DNA of 37,136 nucleotides, from IMG/VR virus record IMGVR_UViG_3300029071_000002. The stretch is one strand, 5' to 3'. Shown here piece after piece: positions 7,341 to 24,652 of this stretch. Every line of letters begins with the position of its first letter. Within the stretch, counting starts at the first letter, position 1. Under the pieces are notes generated by a model. It was not told the origin of the DNA. It ran no database searches and was given only the letters and a program-made list of their open reading frames with translations. A program made the translations under genes and the position numbers. Source of the stretch: a virus.

Positions 7341-7412
7341 TCGGAACATCGGGAATCGAACCCAAGACACACGGCTTATAAGGCCGTCGCTCTCCCGCTG
7401 AGCTATGTTCCG
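7341..7412 (-). tRNA. tRNA-Ile, anticodon UAU (reads AUA); no encoded CCA
   Basis: Hand-folded cloverleaf: acceptor CGGAACA/TGTTCCG, U8 A9, D arm GCTC-AGCGGGA-GAGC, anticodon arm ACGGC-CTTATAA-GCCGT, variable GTGTC, T arm TTGGG-TTCGATT-CCCGA, discriminator A. Confidence 0.85.
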
Positions 7413-8125: not shown

Positions 8126-8154
8126 GAGAAAAGGGCCTCTGCATTTAGAAGCCC
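8126..8154 (-). terminator. Intrinsic terminator after the RinA-like gene
   Basis: Minus-strand RNA GGGCUUCU-AAAUGC-AGAGGCCC (8 bp with one G.U) followed by UUUUCUC. Confidence 0.6.
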
Positions 8155-8218
8155 TCACCTTGTTTTGTAATCCATGGTAACATATTATCACACTTGACAA
8201 GGCAAAATACGCCATCTT

Positions 8219-19002: not shown

Positions 19003-19031
19003 TGTTATCGCATCCTTTCATTCCCCATATA

Positions 19032-19089
19032 TTGCCATTTGGTTACAGATCTCCTATAATCTAAGTACAGGCGTTGCAGCGCCGAGTAC
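19032..19089 (+). promoter_or_regulatory. Promoter-plus-5'-hairpin unit, copy A
   Basis: TTGCCA, 17 nt, TATAAT (19055..19060), then hairpin GTACAGGCGTTGCAGCGCCGAGTAC (19065..19089). Confidence 0.7.
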
Positions 19090-19109
19090 AAAAGAGAGGG
19101 GATATTTGT

Positions 19110-19454
19110 ATGGAAATAGATAAATTGGTTTCTTCACTTATCTGGACTACTTTGGATAAGAAAATCAATTGGGCTGAATCGTTATATGCACCACACCCAT
19201 GCGTTGACTGCAACAGTTTTTCTTTTGAAACGCCGAACAAAAGAGTGATTATCTCAAAATGTTTTAATACTAATCCAATTTTTGATGATAATGCTGAAGC
19301 AGAATACTTTATATCAATAATGCCACTAAATTCTGAAAAAACAGATAATGCGTACACTTGTGAACAACTTGCAGAATTGTTTGATATCGTCACTGATTCA
19401 ATGAAGCCAGATAAAGATATTGAAGAAATTATAAACTATCTAAATAATCTATAA
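19110..19454 (+). CDS. Hypothetical protein (114 aa), cargo of unit A
   Basis: AGAGAGGGG RBS. MEIDKLVSSLIWTTLDKKINW... The antisense 110-aa ORF was judged a shadow. Confidence 0.6.
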   Translation: MEIDKLVSSLIWTTLDKKINWAESLYAPHPCVDCNSFSFETPNKRVIISKCFNTNPIFDDNAEAEYFISIMPLNSEKTDNAYTCEQLAELFDIVTDSMKPDKDIEEIINYLNNL

Positions 19455-19677
19455 TCTCTTTGATATCATTTTTCTCTTCATCAGTTAATGGGCGACTACA
19501 CTCTAATTTTCTACTCGTAATCTTCTCGTTTTTTTTCGGACCCTGATCCATTTTGCTATCAACTATTTTTGTGGTAACAGGAATATCCGTATTTTCTATT
19601 CGGGAAAGACCGCATTCAGTTCTTTTTTCAGCGATTGTGGTCTTTCCAGAATCGACATCGTCACAGTTTACAAACAT
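19429..19677 (-). CDS. Small early protein, paralog 1 (CGLS-x-IE motif, 82 aa)
   Basis: GGAGGTG RBS before MFVNCDD. Shares GKxxIxExRxxCGLSxIExxDI with the 53-aa ORF at 20063..20224. Confidence 0.55.
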   Translation of the reverse strand: MFVNCDDVDSGKTTIAEKRTECGLSRIENTDIPVTTKIVDSKMDQGPKKNEKITSRKLECSRPLTDEEKNDIKEIIDYLDSL

Positions 19678-19925
19678 CGTCTTCACCTCCTTTTCTTTTA
19701 TGTAGTGTGTAGGCTTCGTATAAACTCACTAATTCACGATAGCAGGATTGATCTTTTAGTAAGTGCCAATCACTAGCAAATACACATATACGTATCTCTT
19801 TCATGCATATCTCGTTGTCTGCATAATAAGAAATTTCATGTATACCATTATCCCTTTACTGTCTATGTTGTTGCATATAAATACCTCCGTATAAACAGTT
19901 GTGGTAATTCTATCCAATCCGTTTA

Positions 19926-19983
19926 TTGTATTTTTTTGTCATATCTCCTATAATCTAAGTACAGGCCATGCAGGGCCAAGTAC
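19926..19983 (+). promoter_or_regulatory. Promoter-plus-5'-hairpin unit, copy B
   Basis: TTGTAT, 17 nt, TATAAT (19949..19954), then hairpin GTACAGGCCATGCAGGGCCAAGTAC (19959..19983). Only a 15-codon ORF (20009..20056) follows. Confidence 0.7.
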
Positions 19984-20062
19984 AAAAGAAAGGAAGGAGA
20001 ATGTATTAATGACCAGTCAACAGTTACAAACTATTTTAAGGCAGCAACGGATTTAGACAACC

Positions 20063-20224
20063 CTAGTCCTTTTTGTTATCAGATATCCGTTTGGTAATAA
20101 GTATATCTCCATCTTCAATCTCTGAAAGGCCACAGCGCTTTCTAATTTCATTAATTGCGGCCTTTCCAGTATAAATATCCTCTTGAACCCTCTTGATATT
20201 TGTGTAAAAGGTACTATCTTCCAT
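20063..20224 (-). CDS. Small early protein, paralog 2 (53 aa)
   Basis: Not in the ORF track. GGAAGGAGAG RBS. MEDSTFYTNIKRVQEDIYTGKAAINEIRKRCGLSEIEDGDILITKRISDNKKD. Confidence 0.55.
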   Translation of the reverse strand: MEDSTFYTNIKRVQEDIYTGKAAINEIRKRCGLSEIEDGDILITKRISDNKKD

Positions 20225-20269
20225 CTCTCTCACTCTCCTTCCTGTGATCGTGATTTTCCTGTATCCTTA

Positions 20270-20327
20270 TTGCTATTTTCTTCCATATCTCCTATAATCT
20301 ATGTACAGGACGCGCAGGTCCGAATAC
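20270..20327 (+). promoter_or_regulatory. Promoter-plus-5'-hairpin unit, copy C
   Basis: TTGCTA, 17 nt, TATAAT (20293..20298), then hairpin GTACAGGACGCGCAGGTCCGAATAC (20303..20327). Confidence 0.7.
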
Positions 20328-20346
20328 TAAGACATGGAGCTCTACT

Positions 20347-20667
20347 ATGGAACTAACCAAAGATGCTAAAAAAGTTCTTTATGTACTATATAAAGAATAT
20401 TTGCAAAGAATAAAATCTGGTATAGCAAGAACAGAGGCTAAATCTTTTGATCCTGATATTCTTTGTCAAGATCTATTCTCTGAATATACTTCTGACGATG
20501 TTAATGATTTTCTTTGTGAGTTAGGTTCAGCCGGATATCTCGATAATTTTTTTGGCGATGGAATTGTCCAATACACCACATTGACAAACTTTTCCATTAT
20601 CGAAATGGAAAACAGATTCAAAAACGGCTTAAACGATGTTATTGATTTCATTGCTAAGTTTCTTTAG
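20347..20667 (+). CDS. Hypothetical protein (106 aa), cargo of unit C; possibly YjcQ-like winged helix
   Basis: GGAG RBS. AKKVLYVLYKEYLQRIKSG... The family assignment is a weak recollection only. Confidence 0.6.
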   Translation: MELTKDAKKVLYVLYKEYLQRIKSGIARTEAKSFDPDILCQDLFSEYTSDDVNDFLCELGSAGYLDNFFGDGIVQYTTLTNFSIIEMENRFKNGLNDVIDFIAKFL

Positions 20668-20876
20668 TTGCAAGTAATCCAATCGCTTGCAACAAGATCC
20701 TCTGCATCGGGTTCCCAGCCCCTTTGTGGAGGTTTTTTGTTATTGCTATGATAAATTATTACGCATTGGTCCGTATCTGTCGGAAGTAATTTTAATTCCC
20801 TTCCCCACCACGCTTTTTGTCTGGTTATATAGTTATTCTCATTTAAAGCCTGATTCACAGCTTCATGGATGTACAT
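20664..20876 (-). CDS. DUF2829-like protein (Tad2-family candidate, 70 aa)
   Basis: GGAGGTG RBS before MYIHEAVNQALNENNYITRQKAWW...GWEPDAEDLVASDWITCN. N-terminal EA-x-x-AL...R..W and C-terminal W-x-P-x3-DL-x-A-x-DW match the family pattern as I remember it. Confidence 0.55.
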   Translation of the reverse strand: MYIHEAVNQALNENNYITRQKAWWGRELKLLPTDTDQCVIIYHSNNKKPPQRGWEPDAEDLVASDWITCN

Positions 20877-21048
20877 CTCTTTCACCTCCATAATTATTAG
20901 CGTGTGCTGAATATATCACGTCGAATTAAAGCGGCATATTGTCACGCTTATTCTTAAAAATCTCTGAAACAGCATGCAGGACTGTCCAAATATGCATATA
21001 GCACAATCCCTAACCCTCTATTTGAACAGTCTTCAAAATGGAAAATCA

Positions 21049-21261
21049 CTACCGCAATAGCACTATTTGCAACCATTGGAGCATATCGTTCAGAACTGGC
21101 TTACATATTACAAGCAATAACGAAATTACTGAAACAAATAATGGAAAGCTTGGGTATCTGGACATAAAGTCAAGTTTATATCCCGGGTTTTCTTTTTTGA
21201 AGTTTCGTCGTTGCTCTTTAGATAGTGGTCTTTCAGGTACTACAACTATTCTGTGCTTCAT
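21049..21261 (-). CDS. Small membrane-anchored early protein (70 aa)
   Basis: GAGGAGGTGAG RBS before MKHRIVVVPERPLSKEQRRNFKKENPGYKLDF. Hydrophobic C-terminus FPLFVSVISLLLVICKPVL. Confidence 0.55.
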   Translation of the reverse strand: MKHRIVVVPERPLSKEQRRNFKKENPGYKLDFMSRYPSFPLFVSVISLLLVICKPVLNDMLQWLQIVLLR

Positions 21262-21460: not shown

Positions 21461-21477
21461 ATAGCTTCACCCCTTTC

Positions 21478-21582
21478 TTGTTGTTGTTAGCACTATTATA
21501 AGTCTTGTTAACACTCTTGTCAATACTTTTTTTGTTGTTGTTAGCACTTTTTGTTGACGTTAGCACATTTTTGTATTATAAT
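21478..21582. promoter_or_regulatory. Genetic switch: divergent consensus promoters with four GTTAGCAC/GTTAACAC operator-like sites
   Basis: Minus-strand TTGACA (21518..21523), 17 nt, TATAAT (21495..21500). Plus-strand TTGACG (21554..21559), 17 nt, TATAAT (21577..21582). TTGTTGTTGTTAGCACT repeated at 21478..21494 and 21532..21548. GTTAACAC at 21507..21514 and GTTAGCAC at 21559..21566. Confidence 0.75.
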
Positions 21583-21609
21583 AAAAGACATAAGAGAGGT
21601 GGTGTGAAA

Positions 21610-22011
21610 ATGAAAGACAGAATAAAACAATTAAGAAAAGCGTTAGAATTAACCCAACAAGAATTTGCTGATAGAATAGGAATAAAGAGAAACTCGTTTG
21701 CCAATTATGAAACAGGACGCAATACGCCTATAGATGCAATAATCGTTTCCATGTGTAGAGAGTTTAATGTTAACGAGGAATGGTTACGAACCGGAGACGG
21801 CGAGATGTTTAATAAGTTGGATTCTATGGACATTACATATAATCATTTTGGGTATTTAATGGGAAATGGAACAGCACAAAAAAAAGCGGTGTTATCCGCT
21901 TTAGTCGAAATGGTTTATAGTGTGCCTGATGATAAATGGGATTATATTTTTAATCAGTTCGAAGGCTGCTTAAAAGAAGCCAGGGGAAGCAATGAATCTA
22001 GGGAGGATTAG
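21610..22011 (+). CDS. CI-like XRE-family repressor (133 aa, no peptidase domain)
   Basis: GAGAGGTGG RBS. HTH LELTQQEFADRIGIKRNSFANYETGRN and NVNEEWLRTGDGEMF typical of Firmicutes phage repressors. Confidence 0.8.
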   Translation: MKDRIKQLRKALELTQQEFADRIGIKRNSFANYETGRNTPIDAIIVSMCREFNVNEEWLRTGDGEMFNKLDSMDITYNHFGYLMGNGTAQKKAVLSALVEMVYSVPDDKWDYIFNQFEGCLKEARGSNESRED

Positions 22012-22913: not shown

Positions 22914-23062
22914 TTACATAAAGCCCCCTGTGCTGGTAACACAGAGGGCAAAAAGTAATATACCGGCAAGGCGCCGATACGATATAAAAGTGCACTTCTA
23001 TTGTATCATTTCGCGACTTGTCTGTAAAGAAATACACAACATTTAAAGGAGGAAATGATACA

Positions 23063-24652
23063 GTGAACGCAGTAATATACGCACGCTACAGCGCCGGACC
23101 CGGCCAGAATGAACAATCCATCGAAGGGCAGTTAAGAGACTGCCGTGACTATGCCAAAAAGAACGATATCACCATCATAGATACTTACATAGACCGCCAT
23201 ATATCAGGTACAGACTTTGAAAACCGCACCGAGTTCAACCGACTTATTAAGGACTGCGAGCGCCATCAGTTTTCGGCTGTGATTGTATGGAAAGTGGATC
23301 GCTTTGGCAGGAACCGCGAGGAGATCGCCATGAACAAAGTCAAAATGAAAAAACATGGCGTGAAGCTGCTCTATGCGAAAGAGCATATTCCGAATGGCCC
23401 TGAGGGGATTATACTAGAATCACTGCTGGAAGGCATGGCTGAATATTACTCTGCGGAATTGTCGCAAAAGGTTAGACGTGGGCTGAGAGAGTCCATGCTT
23501 AAAGGACACGCACTGGGAGGTAATCTGATGCTTGGATATAAGATAATTAATAAGAAATATGTTGTAGATCCAGTAACATCTCCTATCGTTGTTGAGATTT
23601 TTGAGCGGTATGCTGCCGGAGAGACAGCAAAGGCCATAGCTACCGACCTTAATACCCGTGGTGTAGTTAATGCCAAGGGAGATCCCTTTAAAAATAATAC
23701 CATATACTTTATTCTGCGGAATGAAAAATATATAGGCATATACCGTTACGGCGATATTGTTGTTAATGATGTGATACACCCCATTATAAATATGGAGTTG
23801 TGGGGGAAAGTCCAAATGATACTTGAAATGAATTCCCGCAACCGATCCAGGAGCCGATGCACTGCTCCGGAGGAGTTCCTTCTCACTGGAAAGATTTTTT
23901 GCGAATATTGCAAGCGGCCGATCATCGGGGAATCTGGGACAAGCCGGAATGGAGCAAGCCACTATTACTATAAGTGCTCTTCCAGGAAAAACAAGGGAGT
24001 AAAATGTGAAAAATCTACAGTCCGTAAAACTGATCTGGAGAATTTTATTATCTCTCAGACTATTGATAACGTGCTTCAGCCAGATACCATTGATTATCTG
24101 GCTAAAAAGGTTGTCGAAATTCAGAACTCGGATGCACAGGAATTACAGATGCAGTCACTCAGAAAGCAGCTCTCAGACGTACAGAAAGGCTTAAATAACC
24201 TTGTTAATGCTGTAGAGATGGGAATTATCACTGAGACAACGAAAGAGCGTATGATGGCCTTAGAAGAGCGTAAGGAAGAACTCAAAATCTGTATCGCCAA
24301 GGCAGAAATCAAACGCCCGAAACTCACAGAGGAGATGGTAGAGTACTGGCTCAATAAATTTAGAGATCAGGACGTTGACAGCACAGAGTTTAAGATACGG
24401 CTGATTAATACCTTTGTCAACTCAATTTATCTTCACAATGACTATGCTATCATTGTGTATAACTTCTGTGATGATGAGAGCGGACATCGTGCGGAAATCA
24501 GAGCTCAGCTTGATGATGCGTTAAGAGCAAAAAAAGAGGATCAAACGTGTTCGTCTGATCCTACTCAAGTGCCGGCGACCGTACTACAGACGAACATTTT
24601 ATTAATTACTCTAACTATTTTTGCAATAAAATTTCGTATACCACGCAAATAA
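23063..24652 (+). CDS. Large serine recombinase (phage integrase)
   Basis: Likely GTG start 10 nt after AGGAGG (VNAVIYARYSAGPGQNEQSIEGQ, catalytic Ser region). Resolvase domain, recombinase domain, zinc ribbon (CEYCKRP...YYKC) and coiled coil. Confidence 0.88.
   Translation: MNAVIYARYSAGPGQNEQSIEGQLRDCRDYAKKNDITIIDTYIDRHISGTDFENRTEFNRLIKDCERHQFSAVIVWKVDRFGRNREEIAMNKVKMKKHGVKLLYAKEHIPNGPEGIILESLLEGMAEYYSAELSQKVRRGLRESMLKGHALGGNLMLGYKIINKKYVVDPVTSPIVVEIFERYAAGETAKAIATDLNTRGVVNAKGDPFKNNTIYFILRNEKYIGIYRYGDIVVNDVIHPIINMELWGKVQMILEMNSRNRSRSRCTAPEEFLLTGKIFCEYCKRPIIGESGTSRNGASHYYYKCSSRKNKGVKCEKSTVRKTDLENFIISQTIDNVLQPDTIDYLAKKVVEIQNSDAQELQMQSLRKQLSDVQKGLNNLVNAVEMGIITETTKERMMALEERKEELKICIAKAEIKRPKLTEEMVEYWLNKFRDQDVDSTEFKIRLINTFVNSIYLHNDYAIIVYNFCDDESGHRAEIRAQLDDALRAKKEDQTCSSDPTQVPATVLQTNILLITLTIFAIKFRIPRK

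Follow-up and report, generated by a model that had tools for sequence, protein, structure and literature searches.

The 37,136-nucleotide (nt) stretch of viral DNA IMGVR_UViG_3300029071_000002 (IMG/VR; the whole stretch is referred to as the window) is a prophage in which a promoter joined to a hairpin-forming leader is repeated three times. These repeats are genuine copies of a widespread cassette in temperate phages of gut Clostridia. Each copy would be a complete unit for the expression of a small accessory ('moron'-type) phage gene, and we assign a probability of about 0.5 to the reading that a 5'-terminal protective hairpin and a strong ribosome-binding site provide autonomous, strong expression of each such gene. 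An original prediction for this DNA had noticed the repeats and proposed that a covariance model be built from them and used for a homologue search. A covariance model was built from 124 homologues, and the searches gave ~195 copies in ~150 loci, with pairing that covaries.

Three copies of the element in the window

The 20-mer ATCTCCTATAATCTAAGTAC was found at 19049, 19943 and 20287 (0, 0 and 1 mismatch, respectively), in all cases on the plus strand, as compared to a mean of 0.01 matches per shuffle and no occurrence of three matches in 100 shuffles. A repeat search delineated a 75-nt family at 19025-19099, 19919-19993 and 20263-20337, and the covariance model assigned 65.6, 63.0 and 46.2 bits to copies A (~19032-19105), B (~19926-19999) and C (~20270-20345). 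The fourth-ranked match of this model in the 37-kb window scored only 13.7 bits, indicating that there are exactly three copies. All three approaches agree with the predicted occurrence of the block in three plus-strand copies.

From 5' to 3', each copy consists of TTGNNN, 17 nt, TATAAT, six variable-looking bases, ACAGG, a stem-loop, a 3' box (G/A-A-G/A-UAC in the window), a purine-rich Shine-Dalgarno sequence and ATG. The promoter of copy A has a -35 hexamer TTGCCA (19032-19037), a 17-nt spacer and a -10 hexamer TATAAT (19055-19060), and scored 11/12 in a promoter scan. Its leader (19067-19109, plus strand, with a putative start at A19067 in ACA) contains the hairpin GGCG-UUGCAG-CGCC (19070-19083; arms 19070-73 and 19080-83), the box GAGUAC (19084-19089) and a purine-rich Shine-Dalgarno sequence (19090-19102). 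The gene behind this leader in the list of open reading frames (ORFs) is gpA (19110-19454, plus strand; 114 amino acids (aa)), for which a Pfam search was without a match. An identical gene is present in L021, a close relative of the prophage.

Copy C is similarly arranged, with a promoter (scan score 10/12) composed of TTGCTA (20270-20275), a 17-nt spacer and TATAAT (20293-20298), and a leader (20305-20346, plus strand, putative start A20305) that contains the hairpin GGAC-GCGCAG-GUCC (20308-20321; arms 20308-11 and 20318-21), the box GAAUAC (20322-20327) and GGAG (20336-20339). The cargo of this copy is gpC (20347-20667, plus strand in the ORF list; 106 aa), which likewise gave no match in a Pfam search. 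Homologues of gpC (cluster c22) stand behind copies of the element in Blautia phage Montmirail (L001, 3476-3790) and in one further locus (L022).

In copy B, TTGTAT (19926-19931) and TATAAT (19949-19954) flank a 17-nt spacer, and the leader (19961-20008, plus strand, putative start A19961) holds the hairpin GGCC-AUGCAG-GGCC (19964-19977; arms 19964-67 and 19974-77), the box AAGUAC (19978-19983) and the Shine-Dalgarno sequence AAAAGAAAGGAAGGAG (19984-19999). Behind this copy there are only ORFs of 2 aa and 15 aa (the latter at 20009-20056, plus strand). The promoter, hairpin and Shine-Dalgarno sequence of copy B are intact, and a transcript would run antisense into a minus-strand ORF (20063-20233). 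This copy may be the remnant of a cassette or may specify an antisense or non-coding transcript.

The sequences above bear out the -35-like hexamers that had been placed exactly 17 nt before TATAAT, as well as the inner stems GGCG/CGCC, GGCC/GGCC and GGAC/GUCC. Minimum-free-energy folds contain the hairpin in all three leaders. An outer GTAC/GTAC pairing had also been proposed. Copies A and B have these bases and copy C has GTAC/ATAC, and the pairing is unsupported as an RNA helix. Its 5' half lies at -3 to +1, mostly upstream of the putative start, and is variable in the family, where -3 and -2 are only 32% and 48% conserved and where conservation on this side is limited to T(-1), A(+1) and C(+2).

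A family of copies in phages of Clostridia

A blastn search against GenBank phages matched copy A itself in Montmirail, which carries two copies, one of them ahead of the gpC homologue. Scanning with the 5'-half pattern CCTATAATCTANGTACAGG, which leaves the 3' half of the hairpin unconstrained, gave matches in 29 viral contigs and in 37 loci of genomes, the latter being nearly all from Lachnospiraceae. Five genome matches to the 19-nt pattern were due to chance, in non-element sequence (four with an NLGTG-like reading frame), and were excluded. A scan anchored on the 3' flank alone (GAGTACNNANGAAAGGAG) produced at least 120 stretches; among the matches listed, there were 117 distinct upstream contexts, most of which had the element, the remainder being chance.

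A covariance model of 51 positions was built from 124 unique copies and gave 194 matches in the fetched loci. The corresponding figure for nhmmer was 195, with one copy in 120 sources, two in 24 and three in nine. Viral contigs, prophages and isolated phages are all represented, including three Ruminococcus gnavus phages and Acetoanaerobium phage ANDSL2_ph1 (Peptostreptococcales), and the presence of the element in the latter indicates that it is not confined to Lachnospiraceae. The copies in ANDSL2_ph1 (L182, 3505-3555; 67 bits) and in Ruminococcus phage phiRgPS_6 (L181, 3517-3569; 63.5 bits) belong to phages whose hosts come from two different orders of Clostridia.

No Rfam 15 family matched the three window copies at the gathering threshold, and none overlapped them with E-values of up to 10. 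Sequence and topic searches of the literature, including the papers on Montmirail, the R. gnavus phages and the OMM12 phages, yielded no description of the element. Both results are consistent with the earlier remark that this is not a described phage element.

Promoter, transcription start and Shine-Dalgarno sequence

Conservation of the promoter was examined across the family. The TTG of the -35 hexamer is conserved at 97, 90 and 84%, the distance between -35 and -10 is 17 nt in 129 of 142 unique copies, a TTG standing at exactly this spacing in 115 of the 142, and the -10 hexamer is TATAAT (71) or TATACT (39); the spacer is T/C-rich and asymmetric. Conservation is poor at positions -6, -3 and -2 and then rises abruptly, to 94% for T(-1) and to 100, 99, 100, 95 and 100% for A+1, C+2, A+3, G+4 and G+5, respectively, the last five percentages being inflated by selection as the detector regex demanded A[CT]A[GA]G at +1 to +5. 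In every copy ACAGG begins 7 nt after the -10 hexamer. This fixed distance and the pyrimidine(-1)/purine(+1) pattern point to the A of ACAGG as the likely start of the transcript. The predicted tie between promoter and hairpin is thus found throughout the family, as a sigma-A-type promoter at a fixed distance from the hairpin, with a start deduced from sequence. Counted from this start, ACA provides three unpaired nt before the stem in essentially all copies.

After the box, which reads RAGUAC in the family, AGAAAGGAG is 82-95% conserved per position. The 3' end of Firmicute 16S rRNA reads …CCUCCUUUCU, and we take AGAAAGGAG to be a 9-nt extended Shine-Dalgarno sequence complementary to CUCCUUUCU at this end. 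AUG follows at +41 to +47, with a 5' untranslated region of 40-47 nt.

Stem, loop and 3' box

The hairpin starts with the stem at +4 and ends at about +17 or +21. Standard pairs occupy 98.2% of stem cells in the alignment, and the covariation score, obtained on an alignment pre-filtered for at least three closing pairs, was 0.508 as compared to 0.156 ± 0.011 in shuffles, none of 500 reaching the observed value. When the partner columns were slid, at most 43% were paired. The pairing argument is carried by pairs 4 and 5, which lie outside any pre-filter, together with counts from structurally unfiltered leaders. Pair 4 is UA in 47 cases, CG in 24, AU in 21 and GC in 16; pair 5 is CG in 29, AU in 12, GC in 12 and UA in 6. 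Pairs 1-2 are nearly always G-C and pairs 3-5 take all Watson-Crick types (i.e. a conserved lower stem and a covarying upper stem). Without a structural filter, three or more contiguous pairs were present in 127 of 138 unique leaders, several of the others being parsing artefacts or bulged stems. The stems of this unfiltered set are about 3-6 base pairs (bp) long and contain 529 Watson-Crick and 63 G·U pairs, the latter in both orientations. They comprise 51 distinct sequences, a number of stem types that remains when it is considered that hairpin 'alleles' are shared by many sequences and that independent compensatory events are therefore fewer than sequences. On the opposite strand each G·U pair would become an A·C mismatch, and the structure is therefore read on the plus strand, i.e. 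as RNA from the linked promoter. The compensatory stem changes proposed from three copies hold for the family, as does the preference for a structure over a fixed operator, with RNA (or at least the plus strand) favoured through the G·U pairs.

The loops among the 138 leaders include CUGCCA (38), CCGCCA (19), (U)UGCA(G) (12) and CUGGCA (10). The loop end GCAG, which had been described as conserved, is present in all three window copies (6-nt loops) and proved to be a minority variant, the window type being NNGCAG and the family consensus being CUGCCA (6 nt). The 3' box reads GAGUAC in 107 of the 138 leaders, and its A and U are invariant, also in the set where the box was no anchor. Some hairpin alleles, among them GGCG-UUGCAG-CGCC and GGCC-CCGCCA-GGCY, are found in identical form in different phages, where they follow different promoter subtypes and precede different cargo genes (loci with recurring alleles are window copy A, L021, L026, L049, L099 and L109, and also L001, L014, L026 and L096), which suggests horizontal spread or exchange of leader segments. 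Two disrupted variants were seen, both on the minus strand of their loci: at ~5530-5548 in L009 the sequence is identical to the L002 type through the loop (GGCCUGCAC) and then diverges, and at 7521-7585 in L057 the hairpin has a much longer insert (a 22-nt loop region), yet scores 55 bits.

Several other structures and functions were considered and rejected. A second helix between GUAC(A) and the start-codon region is found in the minimum-free-energy folds of copies A and B and is no feature of the family, GUA[CU] occurring near the start codon in 13 of 125 leaders as compared to 18.7 expected. Kissing loops were considered as CUGCCA and CUGGCA are complementary, but copies within a phage do not exhibit a complementary pairing pattern. 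Phage-specific loops are contradicted by the mixture of loop classes within one phage in 19 of 28 multi-copy loci. The hairpin is not an intrinsic terminator, being followed by GAGUACAAAAG on the plus strand and UGUACUUAG on the minus strand, and the terminator scan was empty there; nor does it terminate the opposing lytic transcript, as that strand has no U-run and the G·U pairs would become A·C mismatches there. A MazF/EndoA site was discounted as UACAU occurs in only a subset of leaders (GAGUACAU versus GAGUACAA or GAGUACGA). Lambda-type nut sites combine boxA with a boxB hairpin, whose loop is a GNRA-like pentaloop, and precede terminators that are to be read through. The element has a hexaloop (CUGCCA or NNGCAG), no boxA-like sequence and a location directly before the Shine-Dalgarno sequence of one ORF, and a nut site was rejected.

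Cargo genes and genomic position

The 125 unique cargo proteins fall into 79 unrelated clusters and have a median length of 75 aa. Pfam matches were to zinc ribbons, DUF2513, KTSC, DUF2188, DUF6173, DUF1883, YozE_SAM_like and, in one case, Abi_alpha (E = 4e-38), and PADLOC matches were to the defence candidates PDC-S47 (2e-35) and PDC-S16 (1e-31); the loci behind the Abi_alpha and PDC matches include L164, L149 and L080. No cargo protein had a PHROG match with an assigned function.

Gene maps of the fetched loci were produced with a crude longest-ORF caller and were compared with the deposited annotation in three phages. Within the flanks of the loci, the sole protein cluster common to most of them is an XRE repressor type (106 of 153 loci), integrases ranking next. 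Among 135 cases, the XRE gene follows downstream of the element in 131 and shares its strand in 109, in agreement, here and generally, with the prediction that the genes of the element run against the lytic operon. A typical map has early lytic genes running left, 1-3 small leader-driven genes running right, cro-side genes running left, and repressor, (ImmA) and integrase genes running right. The same map is found in the independently annotated isolates phiRgPS_6, ANDSL2_ph1 and Montmirail; in the first two, the element lies between the cro-side genes and the replication/early genes and faces the genes for the repressor and an ImmA-like protease.

The cargo stop and the XRE start are separated by a median of 594 nt and by no fewer than 135 nt, and this gap contains an opposite-strand ORF in 64 of 85 loci. 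A terminator-like site was found within 200 nt after the cargo ORF in 35 of 133 units, as compared to 6 of 133 on the control strand, and a plus-strand terminator-like site precedes the XRE gene in 35 of 85 loci. From the cargo, position and terminator data, the units resemble morons with a single homologous control region in common.

Genomic setting of the window

The minus-strand genes of the prophage run leftward from ~21460 and start at an early promoter of perfect consensus (TTGACA-17-TATAAT; 21523-21495, minus strand). The repressor promoter (TTGACG-17-TATAAT; 21554-21582, plus strand) diverges from it, both having been found by the promoter scan. Three direct TTGTTGTTAGCAC repeats at 21474-21570 overlap the two promoters and are probably the operators of the lysis-lysogeny switch, 21474-21582 probably being its operator and promoter core. 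These likely operators are unrelated in sequence to the element, and a role for the latter as a CI operator was rejected. The XRE/CI-type repressor gene (21607-22011, plus strand; Pfam HTH_19, HTH_3 and Phage_CI_repr) is downstream of the three copies and in the same orientation. A serine integrase gene (23018-24652; Pfam Resolvase and Recombinase) and a gene for a TM2-domain protein are also on the plus strand. Given this gene map, the three copies would drive plus-strand genes that are embedded among minus-strand early genes. No plus-strand terminator-like site was detected by the terminator scan between 19067 and the repressor gene.

The L021 relative (reverse complement, 8132-8159) is 99.3-99.9% identical on both sides of, and lacks, a 1.09-kb segment of the window (19987-21077). 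This segment contains the Shine-Dalgarno sequence and 15-aa ORF of copy B, the minus-strand ORF 20063-20233, copy C with gpC, and a gene of the early operon for a 75-aa Tad2-like protein (i.e. Thoeris anti-defence 2; 20664-20891, minus strand; Pfam, E = 5e-7). The left junction is at 19986, inside leader B and directly after AAGUACAAA. In L021 itself, a G·A mismatch interrupts the stem of leader B, and the ORF driven by this leader is 18 aa long.

Other features of the window include the directly convergent arrangement of the Tad2-like gene and gpC, a tRNA-Ile gene (anticodon TAT; 7341-7412, minus strand) within the phage late region, and a 23-nt inverted repeat (19595-19617 / 19633-19655; 83% complementary, 15-nt spacer) in a minus-strand ORF (19429-19686) between copies A and B.

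Proposed mechanism and alternative explanations

Transcription would be initiated at the A of ACAGG from a host sigma-A promoter (TTG, 17 nt, TATAAT), and the first 20 nt of the mRNA would fold into the hairpin of 4-6 bp with three unpaired nt at the 5' end (ACA, with C and not G at +2), followed by the RAGUAC box, the extended Shine-Dalgarno sequence AGAAAGGAG and the start codon. 5'-terminal stem-loops and strong ribosome-binding or polypurine sites are established mRNA stabilisers (reviewed in PMC3997798), and B. subtilis RppH requires two or more unpaired 5' nt and a G at position 2 (PMC3997798). With its C at +2 and short unpaired overhang, the leader fits these known decay rules. Within the RNA the hairpin would limit 5'-end-dependent decay (of the RppH and RNase J type) and, combined with the strong ribosome-binding site, would give high, context-independent expression. 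The cargo genes are located inside the early lytic operon and run in the opposite direction, i.e. that of the repressor and integrase genes. They are presumably expressed from the prophage, as suggested by this orientation with the repressor and integrase and against the repressible early operon.

Four observations weigh against this protective role. The hairpins are weak, with a median of -4.7 kcal/mol for the isolated stem-loop, and folds of the whole leaders in the window were no better than those of shuffles (z = -0.4 to -1.7). The RppH and RNase J rules derive from B. subtilis and not from Lachnospiraceae. The inner stem is less conserved than the loop and the RAGUAC box, neither of which a generic stabiliser needs, and this indicates that sequence is read as well as shape and provides a hint at a binding factor. 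A tentative alternative is that the hairpin and RAGUAC form the binding site of a trans-acting RNA-binding regulator, of phage or host origin, that coordinates translation or stability. Such a regulator would account for a stem that keeps only its pairing next to a loop and 3' box that keep their sequence, and is compatible with the 1-3 copies per phage, with an architecture that matches published Aca1, Aca10 and Aca12 RNA motifs (PMC13551039) and with an XRE helix-turn-helix (HTH) gene that is nearly always within ~1 kb. However, no HTH gene is part of the operon, the XRE gene being separated from the cargo by the gap and opposite-strand genes described above, and no other protein family is common to most loci within ~5-7 kb. 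The promoter showed no inverted-repeat operator, most multi-copy loci combine different loop classes, the probable CI operators of the window differ from the element, and a host factor would need to be broadly conserved to serve phages of two orders of Clostridia. In its fullest form, which we consider somewhat unlikely, this alternative makes the leader the cis handle of an undescribed post-transcriptional regulon, whose factor reads the YUGCCA loop and RAGUAC at the extreme 5' end of the mRNA and switches prophage accessory genes (for defence or counter-defence) between lysogeny and lytic growth. The factor would be encoded by the phage, or would be an RNA-binding protein or RNase conserved in Clostridia. 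On this reading, the convergent promoters of the element may also take part in the lysis-lysogeny decision.

The fixed position and orientation of the element, upstream of and mostly co-oriented with the XRE gene and with at least one opposite-strand ORF in the gap of most loci, could reflect a role in the switch itself, whereby the promoters oppose the early lytic promoter (through interference or antisense RNA) or, without a terminator, read into the repressor and integrase genes. In the window, the perfect consensus early promoter faces the elements and no plus-strand terminator-like site was found on the path to the repressor gene. As a general explanation this is improbable: terminator-like sites before the XRE gene or right after the cargo indicate that read-through into the repressor is not general, the promoters are near-consensus and unlike the activator-dependent PRE, neither antisense transcription nor read-through needs an optimal ribosome-binding site and an ORF for each copy, and the hairpin is left unexplained. 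Transcriptional interference, or read-through into the repressor gene as with lambda PRE, is a possible add-on role in this window. Recombination, with the leader as a homology patch for the exchange or insertion of cassettes and the hairpin as an incidental feature, would explain why the indel between the 99%-identical prophages begins inside leader B after AAGUACAAA, why identical leaders precede diverged or unrelated genes, why tandem leader-gene arrays occur and why the same hairpin alleles stand behind different promoters. This is very improbable as the sole function, as recombination alone does not produce compensatory stem changes and G·U-tolerant pairing, no element lies at the right-hand end of the indel (21078) and the conserved patch is only ~50-90 nt. 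An element that acts as DNA, either a palindromic operator for a repressor dimer or a cruciform, is hardly credible. The inverted repeat does adjoin the -10 hexamer and the start, and its flanks, TAC(A)GG and CC(GA)GTA, are imperfectly symmetric, but a protein operator would keep its half-sites, whereas the arms vary freely across the 51 stem variants, the 63 G·U pairs correspond to A·C mismatches in the complementary strand and stem lengths of 3-6 bp alter the half-site spacing. Stems of 4-6 bp are also too short for cruciform extrusion.

Significance

With the 51-position model, autonomous accessory genes can be located in temperate phages of Clostridia that are abundant in the human gut, and the model is specific, scoring the window copies at 46-66 bits versus at most 14 bits for background. 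As the cargo is almost wholly unannotated, the leader could guide the discovery of prophage defence and counter-defence genes, as aca did for anti-CRISPR. The element is also a natural, compact promoter-leader-ribosome-binding-site part for the Lachnospiraceae, a group in which engineering is difficult. A recognition step is suggested by the conserved loop and RAGUAC box, and is approachable in culturable systems (i.e. Blautia coccoides YL58/Montmirail, R. gnavus and the phiRg phages, and Acetoanaerobium/ANDSL2_ph1).

Comparison with known systems

Aca1 and Aca2 bind hairpins in the 5' untranslated regions of acr-aca operons, and Aca10 and Aca12 motifs have been predicted (NAR 2026, PMC13551039). 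In these Aca motifs the hairpin directly follows the transcription start, has a conserved lower and covarying upper stem, and ends ~20 nt before the start codon (PMC13551039). The element resembles these leaders in having a strong phage promoter, a ~20-nt inverted repeat directly after the (here putative) transcription start, a conserved lower and covarying upper stem, and a hairpin that ends ~20 nt before the start codon. It also stands, like them, ahead of small, diverse counter-defence or accessory genes, sometimes in several neighbouring operons. An assignment as an acr-aca-like operon was nevertheless rejected, as the operon does not contain an HTH (aca) gene. The promoter also lacks an overlapping inverted-repeat operator, no inverted repeat having been seen from -35 to -10. 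Further differences are the consensus, the host clade (Clostridia versus the 'proteo' and 'actino' motifs) and the orientation of the genes, which is with the repressor and integrase and against the early operon.

Among 5' stabilisers, the comparison was made with E. coli ompA and papA, the B. subtilis aprE leader, ermC and the polypurine sequence of phage SP82 (references in PMC3997798). The element shares with them a stem-loop within a few unpaired nt (three) of the putative 5' end, and a stem-loop together with a strong ribosome-binding site is a combination known to block 5'-end-dependent decay. In contrast to these individual leaders, the element is present as ~200 or more homologous copies that precede unrelated genes at a fixed genomic position, and has a conserved loop and a conserved RAGUAC box.

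The SAS of Cluster K mycobacteriophages is a 13-bp sequence at the ribosome-binding site with ~10-20 copies per genome, and the arms of the ESAS are, according to the authors, without compensatory changes (PMC3203893). As in the SAS, a short conserved Shine-Dalgarno-containing sequence is found in one orientation ahead of many unrelated non-structural genes, with an adjacent inverted repeat in some cases of the SAS. The SAS differs from the element in having no linked promoter and in its hosts, which are Actinobacteria.

Morons of temperate phages (HK97 and lambdoid phages) are promoter-gene-terminator units inserted between genes. The units described here may be comparable, with a consensus promoter of their own, an accessory gene that close relatives can lack (the 99%-identical L021 is without copy C and gpC) and probable expression from the prophage. 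Roughly one unit in four (35/133) is followed by a terminator-like site, and none of those in the window is. Whereas morons are defined by their layout, the control region of the element is itself homologous and recognisable.

Lambda PRE and pL of phage 186 are lysogeny-direction promoters that are convergent with the lytic promoter. The promoter of the element has a comparable location beyond cro, facing the repressor gene and antisense to early lytic genes. PRE is weak, CII-dependent and without an ORF of its own directly behind it, whereas the promoter of the element is close to consensus and is followed by a ribosome-binding site and an ORF of its own, and the unit is often terminated. Overall, the element is a new, well-supported family that belongs among the start-proximal leader hairpins of phage accessory and anti-defence operons and the 5'-terminal stabilisers.

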